Source of the DNA: a virus
Taxonomy: Duplodnaviria > Caudoviricetes
Strand: one strand, 5' to 3'
Length of the DNA stretch: 64,000 nucleotides
Virus record (IMG/VR): IMGVR_UViG_3300032213_000542
Location: 1,966-65,965 of that record
Shown here piece by piece: positions 3,192 through 36,819 of this stretch. The notes below the pieces were generated by a model. That model did not search any database, was not told where the DNA came from, and was given only the letters and a program-made list of their open reading frames with translations. The position numbers were made by a program, and so were the translations under genes. Each line of letters opens with the position of its first letter. Position 1 is the first letter of the stretch.

Positions 3192-3547
3192 GCTTTCCAG
3201 AAACAAAAATGGCCTGCGTGAGTAACCTGTGGTTACGCCAGATGCACTTTGTCAAAGCCGGTGACCGCAACGAAGGCCATGTGCACAACTTCGACCATAT
3301 GACGTTGCTTTCCAAGGGTAGCGTTACGGTTGACGTTGAAGGCCAATTGACGGAGTTCACAGCCCCGCACATGATTTACATCGCCGCAGGCAAGCGCCAT
3401 TTCTTGATTGCTAAAGAGGACGACACAGTGGCATACTGCGTCCATGCCCTGCGCACAGGCGAGCGCGAAGAAGACATCCTTGACCCAGCTATGATTCCGG
3501 CTGGCGTTGATAATCCGTTGGCCGCTGGGCTAGCGCAACCCCTGTAA
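3188..3547 (+). CDS. Cupin-fold protein
   Basis: 'GHVHNFDHMTLLSKGSV...IYIAAGKRH' matches the two-motif cupin His pattern; ATGA overlap. Confidence 0.75.
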   Translation: MSFPETKMACVSNLWLRQMHFVKAGDRNEGHVHNFDHMTLLSKGSVTVDVEGQLTEFTAPHMIYIAAGKRHFLIAKEDDTVAYCVHALRTGEREEDILDPAMIPAGVDNPLAAGLAQPL

Positions 3548-3556
3548 GGAAACAGC

Positions 3557-4411
3557 ATGACTGTAAAAATTGACGGCTCAAATGGCCTTCTCGCAAACTA
3601 CGATTTCCAGACACCGACGACTGGTTTCTCGTATACGTTCACCACATACAACGTGTTGTTTGCTGTCCCTGCCGGTACGCTGGCTACGGGCACTGTGACT
3701 ATGTCTGCCACTCCAGTGGACGGCACGATGTTGACGATTAACTCAACACAGCAGATTACCTCACTGACCATCAACGCCAACACAGGCCAGTCAATCATCG
3801 GCGGTGGTGCAGTTCAATTAAACGCAAACACAAGCCGCCAGTACATGTACCGCGCAGCCAACACAACTTGGTATCTCATCAACGTAGCTGCGGGCAACGT
3901 GGTGGCTTCGGTAAACGGTGCAACGGGAATTGTCACGGGGGTAATTGTCAGTGGAACTTCTGTCGCCTCTACGTCAGGTACGTCCATCGACTTCACAGGT
4001 ATCCCTTCTTGGGCAAAGCGTGTTACTTTGATGTTCAACGGGGTAAGTACCAATGGAACCGCAAATACTCGCGTTCAGTTGGGTGTGTCTGGTGGAGTAG
4101 AAACCACTGGTTACAACTGTACAGCGGGATGGATTGGTGCAAGCTCTGCCGCTGTTCAATCTACTACTGGCTTTGACAGCTATGGAGACTCTGGCGCTCC
4201 ATGTGCAAGACATGGAACATACGTTTTTACTTTAATTGGGTCAAACACTTGGACAATGACAGGTTCTTTCATGGGCGTTAGCGGCGGAAATTTTATATTT
4301 TGTATCGCTGGCTCAAAAGCACTTGCAGCCACTCTCGACCGTGTTCGCATCACAACCACCAACGGCACAGACACCTTTGATGCTGGTTCTATTAACATTC
4401 TTTACGAGTAA
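3557..4411 (+). CDS. Putative tail fibre-associated protein
   Basis: 284 aa; 'VASVNGATG' linker and 'STSGTSIDFTGIPSWAKRVT...LDRVRITTTNGTDTFDAGSINILYE' C-terminal domain. Confidence 0.6.
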   Translation: MTVKIDGSNGLLANYDFQTPTTGFSYTFTTYNVLFAVPAGTLATGTVTMSATPVDGTMLTINSTQQITSLTINANTGQSIIGGGAVQLNANTSRQYMYRAANTTWYLINVAAGNVVASVNGATGIVTGVIVSGTSVASTSGTSIDFTGIPSWAKRVTLMFNGVSTNGTANTRVQLGVSGGVETTGYNCTAGWIGASSAAVQSTTGFDSYGDSGAPCARHGTYVFTLIGSNTWTMTGSFMGVSGGNFIFCIAGSKALAATLDRVRITTTNGTDTFDAGSINILYE

Positions 4412-29050: not shown

Positions 29051-29716
29051 TCAATGCTTTTTGTGAAACTCACAGCCAGTGCATGGGCACCAGCCGCAGA
29101 GCGGGGTACGGGTTGGGTTCCATACATCGTTGTCGATGCAGGATGCGATACGGCTGACGCGCTCACGATACTTCCACCATTCGGCATCCATTTCGTCAAC
29201 GTTCATGCTGTGCTTAACCATATCATTCTTGACCACAAAGAGCAACGCGGAGTTGACCTTGCGGATGTGCGGGAAGTGTTTGAACACCATGATGGACATG
29301 AGGCGCAACTGATCACGGTCAGGGTACTTGTTGTTGCCCGTCTTGTAGTCCACCACCCATGCTGTCAGGTTGTCGTCATCAATGATGAGCAAGTCGGCAA
29401 CGCCCCTTACCCATGCGTCTTTGGCGAACCATTCAGTAGGCGTGAGGTCTTCACGCAACGTCATCTTGTACTCGGCCAGCTTACGACCGGGCTTCTTGAT
29501 GAGCGCATCAAGCGTCTCTTGGATGTATTCAAATTGCTTGGGCAGGGGTGTGCCGTCAGCTACGTAGAGTTCGGCTGCTTTGTGTAGCTCGTTGCCGTAG
29601 CGCGTAGCCTCGGTCTCCACGAACGGATACATCTTCAGAATCTTTACCTGATGGTAGCGACGAGCGCAACCTTCAAAGTCTTTCAAGGAGCTGTGGCTCC
29701 ACGTTACCTTGGCCAT
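29051..29716 (-). CDS. PD-(D/E)XK (Cas4/RecB-like) exonuclease
   Basis: 'WSHSSLKDFEGC', 'GVADL', 'VVDYKTG', 'QL', C-terminal 'LCGWCPCTGC'. Confidence 0.88.
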   Translation of the reverse strand: MAKVTWSHSSLKDFEGCARRYHQVKILKMYPFVETEATRYGNELHKAAELYVADGTPLPKQFEYIQETLDALIKKPGRKLAEYKMTLREDLTPTEWFAKDAWVRGVADLLIIDDDNLTAWVVDYKTGNNKYPDRDQLRLMSIMVFKHFPHIRKVNSALLFVVKNDMVKHSMNVDEMDAEWWKYRERVSRIASCIDNDVWNPTRTPLCGWCPCTGCEFHKKH

Positions 29717-30018
29717 TAAAACCTCGCAGTCTGGATTGCTTTGGTCAGTCGGTTGGCAAAGCCAGTGACAAACTTCTCGTCGTTGTTCAGGTCGTGCATC
29801 CCCATGTCGGCAAGGATGGCGTGCGTCAGCTCGTGCCAGAACGTATCTTCTACGTCCGTGATCTTGAACTTGCGACCTGTGACGTTGCTGCGCTGGCCGA
29901 TGGTGATGCGCTTGCGGTCATGGTTCACATCCCCCATGCGCCCGCGCTGGGCCATAGCCTCAACGATCTCAACCGAGTAGTGCTTGTTGCCCACTCGTAC
30001 TTTACGTGGTAGTTTCAT
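29716..30018 (-). CDS. Small zincin-like metallopeptidase
   Basis: 'TFWHELTHAIL...NDEKFV' HExxH. Confidence 0.65.
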   Translation of the reverse strand: MKLPRKVRVGNKHYSVEIVEAMAQRGRMGDVNHDRKRITIGQRSNVTGRKFKITDVEDTFWHELTHAILADMGMHDLNNDEKFVTGFANRLTKAIQTARF

Positions 30019-30178
30019 TTGCTTTCTCCTTTGGTCCGTTAAATAGCGCCATGCCCAGTTGACCTAGCATCACTGCTTTCAACTCCTCACGTTCTTCTTC
30101 TGGGTATTCGGCAGCAACCTCGTCCATGATTTTCATGATGCTTGCCGCTACGTCTTTGGCTGGAATTATTTTGCTCAT
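30002..30178 (-). CDS. Hypothetical protein
   Basis: MSKIIPAKDV..., AAGGAG RBS, ATGA overlap. Confidence 0.55.
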   Translation of the reverse strand: MSKIIPAKDVAASIMKIMDEVAAEYPEEEREELKAVMLGQLGMALFNGPKEKANETTT

Positions 30179-30405
30179 CGCTTCTCCTTCTGCTGTGTGC
30201 ACATTGCTCTCAACACATCTTCTACCGGAATACCGGCCCCGCTCCCCGTCCACGAATCCCACATGGCCAGTCGTTTCTGGTTAATGGTCAGGTCACCATC
30301 AGGGCTGTCCCGCAACAACTCCCCCATCTCACGGCAACTTGCTGTGAAAGTTTTTGGGGCCTCTTGGTCGGGGCATATCGTGTATGTGTAAGGTAATTTA
30401 GCCAT
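30175..30405 (-). CDS. Hypothetical protein
   Basis: 76 aa, AAGGAG RBS. Confidence 0.6.
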   Translation of the reverse strand: MAKLPYTYTICPDQEAPKTFTASCREMGELLRDSPDGDLTINQKRLAMWDSWTGSGAGIPVEDVLRAMCTQQKEKR

Positions 30406-30415
30406 CGTCTTCTCC

Positions 30416-32404
30416 TTAGTTCTTTGCTAACCCGTATCGTCTATGTGCGCCACCGTCAGCGTCGAGCGGTATGCCCGGCAAATACTTTGGCTCCATAGTC
30501 ATCTGCGCCAAGACCCAAGTCTTAGCGTCATCCACCTCTGCATCGGGCACAACCACGATCTGTTCATCATGCACTGTTCCCGCCACGAAGTACTTCTTCG
30601 CGGTTCTCAACATACCATCTGTCATCACGCATCTCGCTACGCCCTGCGTGACGTTGTTGGTAATTTTTCCTGCGTACAGTTTAGTCGAATCCGCACCGTA
30701 TGTCCACTGCACCCTACCTTTTTCATCCTTATCCCGCTTCAAGTCAGGATACAGCAGGCTCATGCCAGAGGGCAGCACGATCTCACCCTTCTTAAATGTC
30801 AGGCACTTGTAGGTGTATTCCTTACCCCCGTACAGGCTGGTCTCGATAAGCTGGCCGCACAGGTTCCAGAAGTCCACCACAGGCTGAGCAGTCTTACGGT
30901 ACTTCTCGATGATGGCCTTGGCCGCGAGGCAGTGGATGAGCAACTCCTGCTTGGTGCAGATGTGCGGTATCTCCATCATCTTCTTAACGTAGTCCTCGTT
31001 GTCCAAGAACTTCTCAACATCTTCCGCAGTGACGCCCAAGGCTTTCGCGAACTTGCGCTCGTACCGTACAGGAGGCGCACCCAAGAAGCCGACCAATAGC
31101 TGGGATGCAAATGATGCCCATCCCAAACCGTAGCCAGCGCCGAGTAGAGCGGACTTAGCCGACTGCCGAAGGTCGGGGTGCGACTCTTTTGTGAGGCCCG
31201 GGATGTTGAACATCTGAGCGCCGAACTGTGCGTAGGGGTCACCACCTGCGACGAAGATGCGTAGGAGTTCGTCATAGTCCGCCAGCCACGCAAGGACGCG
31301 TGGTTCAATCTGAGACAGATCGCCCACGACGAGTTGATAACCCTTTGGAGCCATGATAGCTTTGCGGAGAAACGAACCACGCTTGAGGTTTTGCATGTTG
31401 ATGGCCGAACCTTTCGAGGCTGTCCACCGTCCCGTCGCAGCACCATAGTACGAGAGCGGTACAGGTAGCGTGCCCCGTCCGGCGATGTCAAGGAAACGCT
31501 GTGCGCGAGTCCTCTCCGTGGTCGATTTAACTTTGAGCCGCGCTTCGCATAGTGCTGCAACATCTTCGTTGTCTCCGTTCAACATGGCTTGGAACATAGC
31601 GTCTGTCTTAGCGAACGCAAAGTTCACACCGACAGGGTTCGGTGTCTTTGCTGTGGGTTTCTTCTTCTTGGTAGGCGGCTCAACGCCCACGTTACGCAAG
31701 GCTTCGGCGAAGTGTGCATTGCTGGCCAGCACGCTGTCCGTCAACCCGAGGCGCTCAAGCAGGGCCTCACGCTTTTCCTTCTCGTCATGCAACGCATCGG
31801 TGAGCATGTTGGCATCTAGCTCCAGCACCGGTTGCGTGTACATCTTGAGCGTCATGTCGATCAGCCTAAGCTCTTTAGTCGGGTAGCCAACAGCGAGACG
31901 CTTGAAAATTTCTTCGCAGAGATATACGTCATGCTTGCAGTAATCCGCGAGTTCCTTCTCCATCTCCCACGATAGTTCTTCGACACCATTGGTGTTGTAC
32001 ACCGCGTTCCCCTTATCCGGCAGGCCGAAGGCTTGGGCAAGTCTTGCGAGGGAATTTCCCACTTCGACCCCCCTAAGAGCGCGAGCCATACTAAGACTGT
32101 CAAGAATAAAAGCAGGTCGGACGCCGTAGACCCACGATAGGATGGAGACGTCAAACTGAGCGTTGTGTGCGAGCACAGCAGTAGTAGACCAATCATAAGT
32201 GGCCAGAATCTTGGGTAGTTCCTCGGCCCTGTACCACTGGGTGATCTTGTCTGTGCCGAACTCGTGCAAGCACGCGCCGAAGGCTTTGAATCTTTCATGT
32301 CGGATGTACTCCTCTGTGGTCATTTTTTGTAAAGTATACCCTGTTGCGGCGTCCCAAAAAGTTTCAAAATCTATGCAGATAATCTGTTTGTATGGTGCGC
32401 TCAT
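30416..32404 (-). CDS. polA: DNA polymerase family A with 3'-5' exonuclease
   Basis: ExoI 'IDFET', ExoII 'HNAQFD', ExoIII 'YCKHD', motif A 'DLSQIEPR', motif B 'RQSAKSALLGAGYG', motif C 'VHDE'; ATG 32404 overlaps the upstream TGA. Confidence 0.95.
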   Translation of the reverse strand: MSAPYKQIICIDFETFWDAATGYTLQKMTTEEYIRHERFKAFGACLHEFGTDKITQWYRAEELPKILATYDWSTTAVLAHNAQFDVSILSWVYGVRPAFILDSLSMARALRGVEVGNSLARLAQAFGLPDKGNAVYNTNGVEELSWEMEKELADYCKHDVYLCEEIFKRLAVGYPTKELRLIDMTLKMYTQPVLELDANMLTDALHDEKEKREALLERLGLTDSVLASNAHFAEALRNVGVEPPTKKKKPTAKTPNPVGVNFAFAKTDAMFQAMLNGDNEDVAALCEARLKVKSTTERTRAQRFLDIAGRGTLPVPLSYYGAATGRWTASKGSAINMQNLKRGSFLRKAIMAPKGYQLVVGDLSQIEPRVLAWLADYDELLRIFVAGGDPYAQFGAQMFNIPGLTKESHPDLRQSAKSALLGAGYGLGWASFASQLLVGFLGAPPVRYERKFAKALGVTAEDVEKFLDNEDYVKKMMEIPHICTKQELLIHCLAAKAIIEKYRKTAQPVVDFWNLCGQLIETSLYGGKEYTYKCLTFKKGEIVLPSGMSLLYPDLKRDKDEKGRVQWTYGADSTKLYAGKITNNVTQGVARCVMTDGMLRTAKKYFVAGTVHDEQIVVVPDAEVDDAKTWVLAQMTMEPKYLPGIPLDADGGAHRRYGLAKN

Positions 32405-33003
32405 GGTGTTTCCTTTAAAACCCACTCCGCAAAAGTGCGGAGTTGTTTGGGTGTTGCGTTTCTTTTCATGCAGTTAGCCAGCATACTGATAACCTGTATG
32501 TTGCCGGGCACATACCCTTTCTTTGGGTCGATCTTGTCAATACTTGGAGACCAGTTACTAAACCCCGCGCCTCGCTCTACAAACCGCTGCTTGAATACAG
32601 GGCAGTTGTTGGGCTTGATACTTATCACATACGCCGCCAAAGCAGCAACATTTGAAAAGCCTAGCTTCACGCCTTTCTTTTTTGCCGCATAAAACACACC
32701 CGCCGCACGCTTGTACCAAACACTGTCCGAAGAAACATAGTTGTTGCCGCTGAGCGCTATGCTTGCCTTCGCTCTCGGATTATTTTTTCCTGTGAAGTCG
32801 CGCCGTTTAGCGTAGGTCGGACGCAGTTCGTCCCGCAAGCAGCCGCATGAAGATGTGTGCCCAGATCGCAGGTTTGAGCCTGACACTATAAGATACGTTC
32901 CGCAATCACACGCACAGTCCCACATTGTTTGGTATGTTCTATTTGCCTTGCTCAAGACGACTAGCCGTCCAAAACGTTTCCCCATAAGGTTAATCAGTTT
33001 CAT
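32401..33003 (-). CDS. Free-standing HNH-type homing endonuclease
   Basis: 'GKRFGRLVV...WDCACDCG...LRSGHTSSCGC' N-terminus plus 'CP...SIDKIDPKKGYVPGNIQVIS..AN' nuclease core; AT-richer than flanks. Confidence 0.8.
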   Translation of the reverse strand: MKLINLMGKRFGRLVVLSKANRTYQTMWDCACDCGTYLIVSGSNLRSGHTSSCGCLRDELRPTYAKRRDFTGKNNPRAKASIALSGNNYVSSDSVWYKRAAGVFYAAKKKGVKLGFSNVAALAAYVISIKPNNCPVFKQRFVERGAGFSNWSPSIDKIDPKKGYVPGNIQVISMLANCMKRNATPKQLRTFAEWVLKETP

Positions 33004-33079
33004 GTACTCCTCCGTTGTGTATTTTATATTCTACAGCAGTGAAGTCGATGCAGACGATGTGTTTAAATGGTGCGCTCAT
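33001..33079 (-). pseudogene. Degenerate duplicate of the DNA polymerase 5' end
   Basis: Encodes MSAPFKHIVCIDF (pol begins MSAPYKQIICIDF); ends ACAACGGAGGAGTACATG vs pol ACCACAGAGGAGTACATC (TTEEYI). Confidence 0.8.
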
Positions 33080-33282
33080 GCTTCACCTCTTGCTCGGATG
33101 GCTGTTGCAACATCGTCATAGGGCAGTCCCAAGGTATAGGCGGCTTCAACAGCCTTTGCACACGCCTCACGCTCTTTAGCTGCTACCAGTTTGGCAAAGG
33201 CTTCAAAAGCAGCGGTGGAAAGCCAAAGCTTTGGGTCAAGCCCCGCCTGTTCAGCCATCTCAATGATTTCATCTTGTTTCAA
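33076..33282 (-). CDS. Hypothetical phage protein
   Basis: 'FAKLVAAKEREACAK...AIRARG' motif. Confidence 0.7.
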   Translation of the reverse strand: MKQDEIIEMAEQAGLDPKLWLSTAAFEAFAKLVAAKEREACAKAVEAAYTLGLPYDDVATAIRARGEA

Positions 33283-33560
33283 TTCAATAACTCCTTGGGC
33301 GGGGCTTGGTCCGCGTTGATGTCGATGAACATCTCATGCAAGCGGCTGAGTACAACGGCTGCTTCAAGTTCGTCACAGTTGATAGTCAGCAGTGTGGCCA
33401 GCTCGGTCTTGTCGTTGCCGATCACGATCACGCCGTGCTTGTCGTCGCTGAGGTAGCAGTCGATGATCTTCTCAACCACGGTACGCATGTGATCTCGTTG
33501 CTGTGGGTCGAGCAGGGCAATCTTCTCCATGAACTCGATGCTGTCTTTAGTCTGTCTCAC
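33279..33560 (-). CDS. Hypothetical protein
   Basis: Probable GTG start after GGAG; ATGA-coupled downstream. Confidence 0.6.
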   Translation of the reverse strand: MRQTKDSIEFMEKIALLDPQQRDHMRTVVEKIIDCYLSDDKHGVIVIGNDKTELATLLTINCDELEAAVVLSRLHEMFIDINADQAPPKELLN

Positions 33561-33855
33561 GTTGCTTCTCCATTCGTAGTAGTTCTTCAACGTGGTCTAC
33601 GTTGAGTTCGCTGATCACAAACGCCCAGCCTTTGGCCGCTTGGATGTTGTGTATTTCGCGCTCTTGCAATGCCGTAGTCCGTCCGCCGTTTGCTTTGCAC
33701 TCGAACGCAACGAACTGTCCGTTGTAGCAGCCCACGATGTCAGGGATACCCGCACGACCGAAGCCGTTAGCAGGCGGCATGAAGTGGTAGATGCCCAACT
33801 GGTTGAGGTACTTGCGTAGCTTGTCTTTGACTTTCTTCTCGGGCGTATCAGCCAT
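33547..33855 (-). CDS. VRR-NUC domain nuclease
   Basis: 'TPEKKVK', 'GIPDIV', 'FECKA', 'TALQ'. Confidence 0.88.
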   Translation of the reverse strand: MADTPEKKVKDKLRKYLNQLGIYHFMPPANGFGRAGIPDIVGCYNGQFVAFECKANGGRTTALQEREIHNIQAAKGWAFVISELNVDHVEELLRMEKQRETD

Positions 33856-34177
33856 TTGTAATCTCCTCGTATGTCATTTCAAAAATATCTGGCTTGCATG
33901 GGTAGTGCTCGCCCTTCACACCAGTGATGATCCAGTCGCCGGGGCAAACAATATGTCCACCCTCAAGCGTGTCCACCCATCCGTGGTTGTAAAAAACATC
34001 ACGGCAGTGCTCGCAATTTAAGTTTGATTGGTACTTCGGATGCCGGAAGTAGCGCACCACCTGCCCCTCATACCCGATGCGCTGTTCTTCTGCTGTGTTG
34101 TAGTCAAGCGGGTGGTCGCCGTTCTTGAACCACTGCGTAGCCTCGATGACCACGGGCTTCTTGCGGTACTTAGCCAT
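33848..34177 (-). CDS. Conserved phage protein ('KKPVVIEA...TLEG...GDWII...YPCKPDIF' family)
   Basis: Characteristic motif string. Confidence 0.75.
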   Translation of the reverse strand: MAKYRKKPVVIEATQWFKNGDHPLDYNTAEEQRIGYEGQVVRYFRHPKYQSNLNCEHCRDVFYNHGWVDTLEGGHIVCPGDWIITGVKGEHYPCKPDIFEMTYEEITNG

Positions 34178-34442
34178 TGGTCACCTCGCTTAGTTTCTGT
34201 ATGTAGTGCTTGGCCTTGCCTCCATCATCACTGCCGTCCTTGCGCCCAGCCCTCATGCTGTACTTGATGATGTTGCCTTTGAGGAACCCACGGAACTCCT
34301 CTGGTGTGAGCACCGCCTCCATCACAGCCCAAGGCTGCACAGGCATCTCTTTGTAGTGGGTGCCACTGATCTGCAAGTCATCAGCAGTCAGGCCGTTCAA
34401 GCTGCGCTCGAACAGTTCTTTTTGGTTTTTAGTAGGTATCAT
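34170..34442 (-). CDS. DUF3310 (T7 gp1.7/SaV-like) protein
   Basis: 'GTHYK...FLKGNIIKYSMRAGRK...KAKHY'. Confidence 0.8.
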   Translation of the reverse strand: MIPTKNQKELFERSLNGLTADDLQISGTHYKEMPVQPWAVMEAVLTPEEFRGFLKGNIIKYSMRAGRKDGSDDGGKAKHYIQKLSEVTNG

Positions 34443-34920
34443 TTACTTTCTCCTTAGTTACTATAGGTCTCATTAGTTTGTTTTGAAACTCGATGTTGAT
34501 GATGTCCATCGCTTTCTCCATGTCGCGCACAGTCGAGATGTCCAACTGCTGATCGTGCAACTCCATGACGAGGTTGATGGCTTGTAGTTCGCTGGCCTTC
34601 AGGATGAACCGACCTGACTCAACACCCCGCCTAGCCACGGCATAGAGCGCGTCTTGCCCTGCACGAATCTCCTCAGCCCAATCAATACCAAACTCAGGGC
34701 GTAGTCTTGTGTAGGCTTCGGTCATGTTGAACATGCCGATCAGTACGTCGATGTCGTCACGCGTTGCGTCCCCCTTTCGTAGCGTGTCCATCGCTGCGTG
34801 GTTCTTGATACGCAGGTCAGTTGTCAGGGATATGGCGTTCATCGGTTTGAGTCCCGCCAGTACCCAGTTCACCATGTCTAAGCGCACACCTTTTGGCCTG
34901 TACTTGCTTCTCTTTTTCAT
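34429..34920 (-). CDS. Hypothetical phage protein
   Basis: 163 aa, 'MKKRSKYRPK' start, coupled to neighbours. Confidence 0.7.
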   Translation of the reverse strand: MKKRSKYRPKGVRLDMVNWVLAGLKPMNAISLTTDLRIKNHAAMDTLRKGDATRDDIDVLIGMFNMTEAYTRLRPEFGIDWAEEIRAGQDALYAVARRGVESGRFILKASELQAINLVMELHDQQLDISTVRDMEKAMDIINIEFQNKLMRPIVTKEKVNDTY

Positions 34921-36819
34921 TTTCTTACCATTGTTGCGCGGTCTAGTTTACGGATGATGTCCTCAAGCTGGCGCACCCTAGCCTCAAGTTCTTCAATGCG
35001 CCGCTCTAGGTGTGCGCGTATCTGCTCAGGGCTACGATGCGGCACGCTCAGGCCGATGGGTTTTCTTTCTGGCATGGTCGCTCCCGTTGCTCGCGTTCGA
35101 TACGCTCGAACTCATCGTCCTCTGCCTTGGCGTCGTCGCTTCTAAAGATAGCGTCAAAGTTTTCAGCAAAAGATTTGTAGTTTGTTGGGCGTTGCTTGTC
35201 GCCCTTGCCTGCTTCGTGTGTCATGCGTCTTCTCCTTATCGAAATATTGCCCATACCCAAAAGGCAAACATCAGCACTATGAAAGCATCGTTCAAAGCAT
35301 CAATCATTTCTTCATGCTCCTTACAAATGCTGCAAAACTGTCCACTGTGTCCTGACCAAACGCAAACTCAAAGCGCTTCAATTCATCAGCCACCTCAAGC
35401 AAGGTCTCGTTACGCACAGCCTTGGCAAACTCTTTCACGTTGTCGTAGCCAGCGTCAGCCAGCAGTTGGTTGAGTCTCTCGTTCATTTCCATACTCCTGC
35501 TCTGCTATACACATGGAACGTGGTGATCTTGAGCATCTCTGCCTTGACCTCGGCCATCGTCATGCGTTGGTTGGTCTTACTGTTGATGTGCCCCTGCTTG
35601 GGCACCTTGACGGACACCTTGGCACGCTGGACTATCTTGCGTGGCTTTGCAGCATCACGCGCTACTTGGTTGGCCTCGACTGTACGAAAGTCTGTCATGA
35701 AGTCAGGGTGGTACGTCTTCATGTAGTCGGGGTGAAAGGCATTGATGATCATAGTGGGCTCTCCGGTAGTTGTTGTCGTTGTTGCTTCTCGTATTCCCGT
35801 ATCTGCTTGGGCGTCCACGGGATTGGTGGTTGTGTCGGGAAGGGCCATGTCACTGCAACTCCCGCAGTTGGTCAAACAGTTTCCAGAACTTCTGCGTGTG
35901 CTCATCGCTCTCGCCACCGTCAAAATAGTTGACGACGCTTTGTGCTTCGTCTACCACCTTACGCAGTATCTCTGCCGCCGCAGCACCTTGCTCGAAGCCC
36001 AGCTCGTAGGCATTACTCATTGCTGTGACGGTGTTCTCGTCACAGTTCACGCTACGCAGTAGCGTGACCATCTCATGTTTAGTCATCTTGCACCTCGAAA
36101 AAATAAATTAAACCTACCAGCACCGACCACGTTGCGCCTACACCCAGCACCATGAGCGTTACGATAAGCGTGACGTTTTCTATAAAGTCCATGTTGGTTT
36201 CCCCAGTTCTTTCAGTATACGTAGGCGCAGGGCGAAGCCCCACACCAAGCCCCACAGTACCCAAAGGAATCGTATGTCACGCGTCCAGTTGGCAGGGTCT
36301 TTGTCCCACTGCACCAGACCAACCAGCACATACACGGCGGCGATCATGATGGGGTACGCAATCAAGTCAATGTATTTCATGCGTTCTTCTCCTTTTTTAT
36401 TTTCCAAATCCAGCCATCTTGTGGGGGGCTGTAACGCTCGTCATGCGCCAATTCACGGGCTCTCTCCAAGGTAATCTCGGGTAGCAGCCTGCGTGTCCAA
36501 AGAGCGCGAGCGTCAATCGCACCCCGATGCGACTCGGCCAACTTGCCGAACCAGTAAATGTCCATGTCTCTCTTTCGCATACCAGACTTGACATAAAGCC
36601 AGTACAAAAACTTCTGTATGTGTTTCATACCACCCTCCAAAAGTAAACAGCCAACCCCACCCACAAGATCACGCCTGTCCAAAACATCAAGCGGTCTTGC
36701 CATGTTTTCTCAGGTGGGAACCACCACTGTGCGTTGTCCACATCTTCCCTGAACGCCTCGTTGGTTGAACGAGCAAAGCGCCGTGTCGTGGGCCAGTCTT
36801 GGTAATCATTGTTTTGCAT
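34917..36819 (-). other. Run of about 10 short coupled early ORFs (34917-35075, 35048-35224, 35304-35492, 35483-35752, 35850-36086, 36079-36192, 36180-36380, 36377-36628, 36625-36819)
   Basis: Most have AGGAG/GGAG-type RBS and/or overlapping stop/start; several hydrophobic; no function recognised. Confidence 0.6.

Follow-up and report, generated by a model that had tools for sequence, protein, structure and literature searches.

The stretch of DNA analyzed here, referred to as the window (64,000 nucleotides), covers almost the whole of a virus record of 65,965 bp, IMGVR_UViG_3300032213_000542 from IMG/VR, which has direct terminal repeats. At the locus in question, where all genes lie on the minus strand, a free-standing endonuclease gene that we call HEG-1 is flanked by a 39-nt copy of the start of a DNA polymerase gene and by the full polymerase gene. 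The polymerase gene (30416..32404, 662 amino acids) codes for a family A enzyme (Pfam DNA_pol_A, 8.1e-20; PHROG 17, 1e-69). It is intact with a complete N-terminus of its own, begins at ATG 32404 with MSAPYKQIICIDF, and is preceded by its own Shine-Dalgarno (SD)-like sequence, AAGGAAA. The HEG-1 gene (32401..33003, 200 amino acids) is present as a single copy in the genome, and its product matches phrog_374, 'HNH endonuclease' (2.3e-23), and phrog_1035 (4.9e-15); the PHROG families matched are annotated as HNH endonuclease or endonuclease VII. The gene starts at ATG 33003 and ends with a TGA (32403-32401) that overlaps the polymerase ATG. Upstream of it are a 37-nt leader (33004..33040), with TAGAAT at 33033-33028 and GGAGGAG at 33013-33007, and the short copy of polymerase codons 1-13 (MSAPFKHIVCIDF, 33041..33079), which will be called the remnant and which probably represents the displaced original start. 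The ATG of the remnant overlaps the TGA of up68, a 68-amino-acid open reading frame (ORF; 33076..33282) for which no Pfam family and no PHROG family was found. The interval between the remnant and the polymerase ATG measures 675 nt, and its non-coding part is only 37 nt. The remnant opens a putative ORF of 29 codons plus stop (MSAPFKHIVCIDFTAVEYKIHNGGVHETD, 32990..33079), which crosses the SD and ATG of the endonuclease in the +1 frame and stops 14 nt beyond the start of that ATG. In the working polymerase gene, the new ATG and codons 1-29 (32318..32404) form what we interpret as a replacement 5′ end. Its nt 20-87 are a divergent, AT-rich patch that contains TATACTTTACAAAAA at 32338-32324, and the right edge of this patch is found just upstream of GAGGAGTACAT (32304..32314; codons E31, E32, Y33 and the first two bases of I34), the working-gene counterpart of the remnant/endonuclease junction. 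The D-x-E of the ExoI motif corresponds to codons 12-14 of the window polymerase and the Ile is codon 34, this allele having one extra codon.

The comparisons rest on IMG/VR and metagenome contigs, whose loci are labelled L001 and so on, because an annotated phage collection held no close relatives. DNA similarity to that collection was limited to one 44-nt chance match, and a protein search found polymerases of at most 31% identity and endonuclease relatives below 60% (at most 31% among the matches listed). A scan of IMG/VR produced 80 loci with polymerases 72-98% identical. Seventy-three loci have no endonuclease gene and carry the polymerase N-terminal motif once each; a further locus, L043, is cut off at its 5′ end. 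Two start copies were detected by the peptide-motif scan only in loci with an endonuclease gene, and in none of the 73 relatives without one. When 77 loci were compared with themselves at the DNA level, the window alone reached a score of 41 and the other 76 stayed at or below 30. In the usual arrangement among the relatives, a homologue of a 103-amino-acid ORF, and not up68, overlaps the polymerase start; the overlap has the form NTGA in 61 of the 72 endonuclease-free loci with sequence context, 40 of these being TTGA.

The nearest relative, L001, is endonuclease-free and its polymerase shares 98% protein identity with that of the window (93.7% over 1998 nt). It has a single polymerase start, ATGA-coupled to a different small ORF. 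The remnant is identical to the first 39 nt of the working polymerase at 28 of the 36 positions after the ATG and to L001 at 33 of 36, and this match to an endonuclease-free locus indicates that the remnant is of native origin. A blastn comparison agreed, with window positions 33091-33041 matching the junction between the small ORF and the polymerase of L001 (90% over 51 nt). The working polymerase behaves differently at its 5′ end. Compared to L001 there are 26 mismatches in nt 20-87, none in nt 88-131, and about 6% divergence in the rest. The G+C content at third codon positions is 0.41 in polymerase codons 1-29, as against 0.66 in the rest of the gene, 0.69 in the remnant and 0.79 in the same codons of L001, and only 1% of the 29-codon windows of the polymerase reach a value as low. 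Furthermore, TATACTTTACA (encoding YTLQK) occurs in six of eight endonuclease-linked polymerase alleles and in none of 54 distinct endonuclease-free alleles, most of which read TACACGCTGTCCAAG at that site. Relative to an L001-like ancestor, the window kept polymerase nt 1-39, lost nt 40-87, and gained the leader, the endonuclease gene and a foreign nt 1-87. Two endonuclease-free loci show related features: L056 has an AT-rich 5′ patch at polymerase nt ~20-85, and L024 has the YTLQK signature, written TTACAAAAA, at nt ~60-80. Both may be footprints of a lost endonuclease cassette.

These comparisons bear on several statements of a first-pass annotation of the window. A duplicated polymerase 5′ end around the HNH gene, ATGA couplings at both starts, and a contrast in codon usage between the two copies had all been described there, and all were borne out. 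The predictions that a relative without the HNH gene would have one polymerase start, coupled to the upstream ORF and resembling the remnant, and that the duplicate would be absent without the endonuclease, agree with L001 and with the 73 endonuclease-free loci. The working N-terminus had been described as a recoded replacement. Replacement is upheld, but the distribution of TATACTTTACA makes it better read as a foreign, AT-richer allele inherited together with the endonuclease than as the product of recoding.

The leader of the endonuclease gene is also related to the polymerase. Its segment AAAATACACAACGGAGGAGTACAT (33025-33002) aligns to polymerase nt 76-98 of endonuclease-free alleles with a score of 36, which none of 40 shuffled versions reached (mean 20.2, maximum 25). 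The segment is thus homologous to polymerase nt ~78-101, which code for KMTTEEYI, and GAGGAGTACAT within it is found exactly in the window's own polymerase (32314-32304). It follows from this homology that displaced Glu-Glu codons supply the GGAGGAG SD and that the Ile position (codon 34 in the window) supplies the endonuclease ATG, as the first-pass annotation had proposed on the basis of the KMTTEEYI block. The relationship extends to other members of the family. Nine of 12 HEG-1 leaders had their best match at polymerase nt 73-98, ending at one common base, and for six of these nine none of 40 shuffles reached the score. The leader of L187 aligns with polymerase nt 65-101 of L082 over 37 columns with one codon-sized gap (0/100 shuffles), and this alignment places the −10-like box (TATACT, TAGAAT or TATAAT) on the polymerase Tyr-Thr codons TAT ACT. 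Together with the shared TATACTTTACA, this match indicates that the leader and the carried polymerase start come from the same allele type. By eye, the −10-like box lies 24 nt ahead of the ATG in most HEG-1 leaders. The earlier observation of −10-like boxes is therefore correct, but they are not mere filler for a missing middle, since they are conserved in position and map to the Tyr-Thr codons. A sigma-70 scan identified four sites against 2.8 expected by chance, one of them the weak site TCGACT + TAAAAT, and at these numbers it gives no promoter evidence. The leader was also considered as a recurrent phage promoter motif and rejected as such, CACAACG occurring 15 times against 16.6 expected and a 25-nt piece of the leader occurring once in the window. 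A scan of viral contigs for the leader pattern retrieved only two, both already in the comparison set. The idea that the GAR-GAR-TAY variation of the leaders follows each host's own codons was dropped after a comparison by eye revealed no tracking. Separately, the DNA of GAGGAGTACAT(A/C)CG (EEYIR; 32301-32314 in the window) is almost invariant, third codon positions included, among alleles that are otherwise 20-30% different, and constraint on the protein may not be the only cause.

Scans with the endonuclease protein identified 17 distinct HEG-1 sequence types including that of the window. The polymerase gene follows directly in 14 of the 17; in two the contig ends before the polymerase would be reached, and in one another gene follows. 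Between phage clades the endonucleases are 57-67% identical, as compared to 36-48% for the polymerases (amino acids 34-290), and this lower divergence points to transfer of the endonuclease between clades. Six types (the window, L082, L083, L092, L184 and L185) have a 39-nt remnant that ends at codon 13. Among the last five, the L082 group, the endonuclease genes are 88-99% identical in pairwise DNA comparisons, the 46-nt leaders 89-100% and the remnants 69-90%, and the 500 nt upstream have no shared blastn match in eight of ten pairs. In L184 and L185 the endonuclease genes are 99% identical and the leaders identical, the remnants are 85% identical, and the upstream DNA is arranged differently. 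Across the six remnants, the variable codon positions are the third in 11 of 12 codons and the first and the second in four of 12 each, a third-position bias that would result from the capture of every remnant out of a functioning gene. The data are most simply explained by a single cassette that has invaded different working polymerase genes on repeated occasions, leaving the first 13 codons of each recipient in front. Shorter stubs were recognized by eye in L188 (16 nt, MSKPF) and L187 (8 nt, TTGAGCGC), and across the HEG-1 types the stub lengths look like an erosion series. The gene is present or absent at one locus among close relatives and is accompanied by donor-type flanking sequence, as is typical of homing genes.

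A second endonuclease family, HEG-2, occupies the same position. In L013, a gene for a 165-amino-acid endonuclease (3456-4017) immediately precedes the polymerase gene. Its product matches Pfam zf-His_Me_endon, HNH_3 and HTH_3; a profile comparison between HEG-1 and HEG-2 revealed no relationship (hhalign probability 0.2). The endonuclease gene is preceded by an ATGA-coupled remnant ORF, MSAPFKHIVC-YT-IDITMYWS, whose first 30 nt are identical by eye to those of the endonuclease-free L017 (30/30). The working start of L013 has nearly every codon altered (for example, AGC to TCA and GCA to GCT) and is essentially identical to L017 from nt ~34. L005 has the L013 endonuclease but no remnant of codons 1-10, and from nt 40 onward its sequence equals that of L011. 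Eight related contigs repeat the HEG-2 leader, in which TACTGGAGTCTAC precedes the ATG and which may derive from polymerase codons 11-18 (IDFETYW). In leader alignments, two of four gave their best match at polymerase nt 28-52, with 7/40 and 1/40 shuffles reaching the score, and the other two matched elsewhere. A polymerase origin of the HEG-2 leader is hence only suggestive, and the continuity of the L013 remnant ORF is the better argument for it. Judging from these sequences, two unrelated HNH families share the same design at the polymerase. HEG-2 is also found before the polymerase in L005, L061/L062/L065 and L164-L169, with a C-terminal helix-turn-helix (HTH). In three distinct HEG-2-linked alleles (five contigs), the ExoI D-F-E is changed to D-M-E. 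The L013 replacement start (4001-4040) has the host residues F5, H7, V9 and C10, as in L017, with codon choices of the L005-type cassette (ATG TCA GC. CCG ...), and fits neither a plain foreign allele nor a plain conversion from the remnant.

In our view, the window probably contains a mobile cassette with a free-standing homing endonuclease, inserted into the 5′ part of the essential polymerase gene. The cassette would consist of a short leader descended from polymerase codons ~23-34, the endonuclease ORF, and a foreign polymerase start formed by the SD, the ATG and the first ~29 codons. Upon insertion, the cassette's polymerase 5′ end would be joined to the resident gene immediately upstream of GAGGAGTACAT, in the same reading frame. 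A full-length polymerase would thus still be made, from a new start coupled in translation to the endonuclease stop (ATGA). The original start of the resident would be stranded upstream and its middle part later deleted, leaving codons 1-13 and the GGAGGAG/ATG piece. The first-pass annotation had suggested an insertion into the ORF that needs neither intron nor intein and supplies a replacement 5′ end, and the comparison with L001, the five contigs of the L082 group and the leader homology all support it. It had placed the insertion in the conserved ExoI region, and this was not confirmed: the junction is at codon 34, downstream of ExoI, and only the internal deletion of the remnant begins at codon 13/14. 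We propose that the target of the endonuclease is a site within nt 40-100 of endonuclease-free polymerase alleles, that the carried allele is immune, and that the cassette spreads by double-strand-break repair, with the conserved 39-nt remnant as the left arm and the polymerase body as the right arm. The only hint of such cleavage and immunity is the uneven distribution of TATACTTTACA between linked and free alleles. The conserved −10-like box would drive transcription of the endonuclease. The nt 39/40 boundary was considered as a mark of the cut site and this idea was dropped, a fixed boundary being equally explained by one inherited ancestral deletion, with homology ending there.

Several points weigh against this interpretation, and some of them concern the protein. 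The window HEG-1 matches no Pfam family at E<=0.01, none of seven members has a relevant match at E<=1, and sequence searches of PDB found no match; NCBIfam has no match either. HEG-1 belongs to a large metagenomic family, and a word-indexed search with it retrieved 283 proteins at E<=0.001, with no precomputed Pfam domain among the 120 listed. A first AlphaFold2 (AF2) model, based on seven sequences, was discarded (pLDDT 59.9), and a model from a 53-sequence alignment reached a pLDDT of 89.6. In HEG-1, a Cys-rich beta module at the N-terminus is followed by a beta-beta-alpha-Me (HNH-like) domain at the C-terminus, with the beta-beta-alpha unit modelled at residues 153-180 (strands 153-157 and 169-173, helix 174-180). 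According to VIA-align, the best solved structure is PacI 3m7k, with a Z of 8.0 that is borderline and in a range common for such comparisons (root mean square deviation 2.8, 88 residues aligned), followed by Hpy99I, Gme HNH, EcoKMcrA, T4 endonuclease VII and GVE2 HNH (Z 3.8-4.9). Foldseek agreed weakly, with PacI 3ldy on top (E 0.048), and the BFVD predicted viral structures gave 134 matches at E<=0.001, including several with the name of an HNH or homing endonuclease. In the motif region of the 53-sequence alignment, SPSIDKIDP...GN...AN..K, residues S154, D156, N168, N177 and K180 are invariant or nearly so, and no canonical catalytic His is conserved at the end of the first strand. The modelled fold is therefore that of the beta-beta-alpha-Me superfamily, but without its canonical catalytic residue, and a variant active site is possible. 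The nuclease activity of HEG-1 is suggested by its evolutionary behavior and not by its sequence. The Cys-rich module (residues 1-60; 32824-33003; G.FGRL.V...W.C.C.CG...SCGC) is repeated in tandem in other proteins, up to 11 times. The family profile matched 102,025 library proteins at E<=0.001, there is no Pfam model for the module, and a fold search found small SH3/Tudor/KOW-like barrels (Z ~4).

The other points concern the target and the distribution of the cassette. As polymerase nt 88-131 of the window are identical to those of the endonuclease-free L001, immunity, if any, must depend on bases further upstream. Efficient homing in T4 reportedly needs about 50 bp, beside which a 39-nt homology arm is short. 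The exact cassette subtype of the window is found in one DNA context only, its closest protein relative, P0001 (96%), being on a 1220-nt contig, so that repeated insertion is established for the sister subgroup and not for the window subtype. Finally, seven HEG-1 types have no codon 1-13 remnant at all and their leader directly follows the stop codon of the upstream gene. The remnant is therefore dispensable for the persistence of the gene.

This last point also speaks for the explanation that we regard as the strongest competitor, although an unlikely one. An endonuclease gene normally located between the upstream gene and the polymerase could have been copied by one-sided double-strand-break repair, and an illegitimate join on the left, where homology was lacking, could have left the stub as a dead scar without a role in mobility or expression. 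One-sided repair through microhomology has been documented in T4 homing (PMC2988022, citing Parker et al. 1999). The seven stub-free types, along with the two shorter stubs of L188 and L187, resemble the erosion of something dispensable, and the window has the atypical up68 in the slot beside the polymerase, so that left homology with a standard donor would be missing. However, illegitimate joins should vary, and the five contigs of the L082 group, with different upstream DNA, share the exact boundary after codon 13 and have native remnants that differ from one another. The polymerase-derived leader is also present in the stub-free members, which argues that the remnant is ancestral to the family and not a one-off event.

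The stranded start could also have been kept as a functional upstream ORF, by which ribosomes coming from the preceding gene repress or re-initiate and so tune translation of the endonuclease. The ATGA coupling to the preceding ORF has been retained, and in all seven long-remnant loci (the window, L082, L083, L092, L184, L185 and L013) the remnant ORF is open and ends 14-38 nt beyond the first base of the endonuclease ATG. The codon-like substitution pattern of the remnants is in line with such a role, but is equally expected from fresh capture of working genes. Past codon 13, the window and the L082 group encode different peptides, and many members of the HEG-1 family have no remnant. We judge this explanation improbable as it stands; it is compatible with the cassette interpretation rather than an alternative to it.

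Chance similarity, or a tandem duplication independent of the endonuclease, is very improbable. GAGGAG is indeed both a common string for Glu-Glu and a Shine-Dalgarno sequence, but no shuffle of the window leader reached its score and the arrangement recurs strictly with endonuclease genes of two families. The weakest proposal makes the interval a spliced or bypassed element, such as a group I intron, with the upstream 13 codons as polymerase exon 1. Group I introns are known from phage polymerase genes, and the upstream copy is in a good translational context. Yet Rfam has no intron match at 30000-35000 at E<=1 (one chance snoRNA only) nor in L013, L005 or L061 at E<=0.1, and a ribozyme would not fit into the 37 non-coding nt of the 675. 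The downstream gene has an ATG and an SD-like AAGGAAA of its own, and its N-terminus is complete and lines up with those of all relatives. If the 13 remnant codons were spliced onto this ORF, their residues would be present twice. Judged by sequence, splicing can practically be set aside. An intein does not fit either, as the endonuclease ORF has its own start and stop, the latter overlapping the polymerase ATG, and is not fused in frame with the polymerase; no Hint domain was found.

The cassette interpretation has its closest parallel in the mobile ORFs (mORFs) of fungal mitochondria, described in atp6 of Allomyces macrogynus and in atp6, atp9, cox2 and nad3 of a Glomus sp. (Beaudet et al. 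2013, PMC3630166, citing Paquin et al. 1994 for Allomyces). In the mORF cases as reported, an intron-free endonuclease ORF is found in a coding gene, a foreign gene end is fused in frame, and the displaced native end persists as a second copy agreeing with that of close relatives; the window shows the same features. The inserted end is divergent in both systems. In the Glomus atp6 mORF, the native duplicate is 91.2% identical to a relative as compared to 63.5% between the two copies (PMC3630166), and the same pattern is seen in the window, in L013 versus L017, and in L005 versus L011. The mORFs described in these sources carry a foreign C-terminus and affect the 3′ end, whereas the window cassette replaces the 5′ end and brings a new start codon and ribosome-binding site. 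Their enzymes are of the LAGLIDADG or GIY-YIG type; the window cassette belongs to a bacteriophage and codes for an HNH-like enzyme. A further difference is that displaced codons in the window are apparently reused as the SD, the ATG and the −10-like box of the endonuclease. The phage case is an N-terminal mirror image of mORFs in which displaced codons additionally seem to have been recruited as expression signals.

There are also parallels with the intronless homing of T4 Seg and Mob endonucleases, as reviewed by Edgell, Gibb and Belfort (2010; PMC2988022). In both cases a free-standing gene beside an essential gene is present or absent among relatives, there is a co-conversion tract in the flanking gene, and the endonuclease probably has its own promoter. 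The T4 elements covered in that review lie between genes, with cleavage sites hundreds to thousands of bp away, whereas the window element is within an ORF and flanked by two copies of its target's start. Gene-splitting insertions, such as mobE in nrdA of phage Aeh1, mobA in T4 gene 60/39 and seg in gene 43 of phage 25 (PMC2988022), likewise put a free-standing endonuclease gene inside an essential phage ORF. Those insertions result in two polypeptides that reassemble, whereas in the window the carried N-terminus would restore the gene and the upstream piece would be discarded. One-sided T4 homing with illegitimate repair, in which homology on one side is combined with a microhomology junction, is a plausible origin of the first duplication. 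It is reported as an experimental outcome in T4 with variable ectopic junctions, whereas the window layout is conserved and recurs at one base across many genomes. A search of open-licence literature listed no phage in which two copies of a gene start flank a free-standing endonuclease.

We put forward tentatively, with somewhat less than even confidence, that the start-replacement cassette is a third route into essential ORFs besides introns and inteins. Insertion would be harmless because the cassette carries the 5′ end of the target gene as a portable part, and the cassette would not depend on the identity of the upstream gene because the displaced conserved start would act as a universal left homology arm. 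The displaced codons would be reused as expression signals: Tyr-Thr as the −10 box, Glu-Glu as the SD, and Ile as the ATG. Two HNH families would have converged on this design, which may represent a general, overlooked class.

Some features of the surroundings deserve mention. A Hjc-like Holliday-junction resolvase gene (102 amino acids, 33547-33855, minus strand; Pfam Hjc, 5.2e-05) and a PD-(D/E)XK nuclease gene (221 amino acids, 29051-29716, minus strand; 3.8e-17) are located nearby, and hence the phage encodes recombination functions beside the polymerase. The slot in front of the polymerase start forms a hot spot of differing small ORFs of 55-95 amino acids, each coupled to the start, with variants in the window (33076-33282), L001, L004, L014, L033-35, L041, L055, L068 and L074. 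Homologues of up68 are found ~3 kb away in other relatives.

If the cassette interpretation is correct, a selfish nuclease can colonize an essential phage reading frame without splicing machinery. This would explain the short orphan ORFs and AT-rich 5′ patches found beside phage HNH genes, features that can mislead gene calling, start-site annotation and polymerase phylogenies. If the class is general, annotation pipelines would read its members as an 'HNH gene plus small hypothetical ORF'. The natural pairs L001 and the window, L017 and L013, and L011 and L005, presumably sensitive and immune, could be used to map the target sites of two uncharacterised endonuclease families. The finding links phages to the mobile ORFs of mitochondria, and it suggests a general rule for such elements, namely to carry the gene end that they displace.

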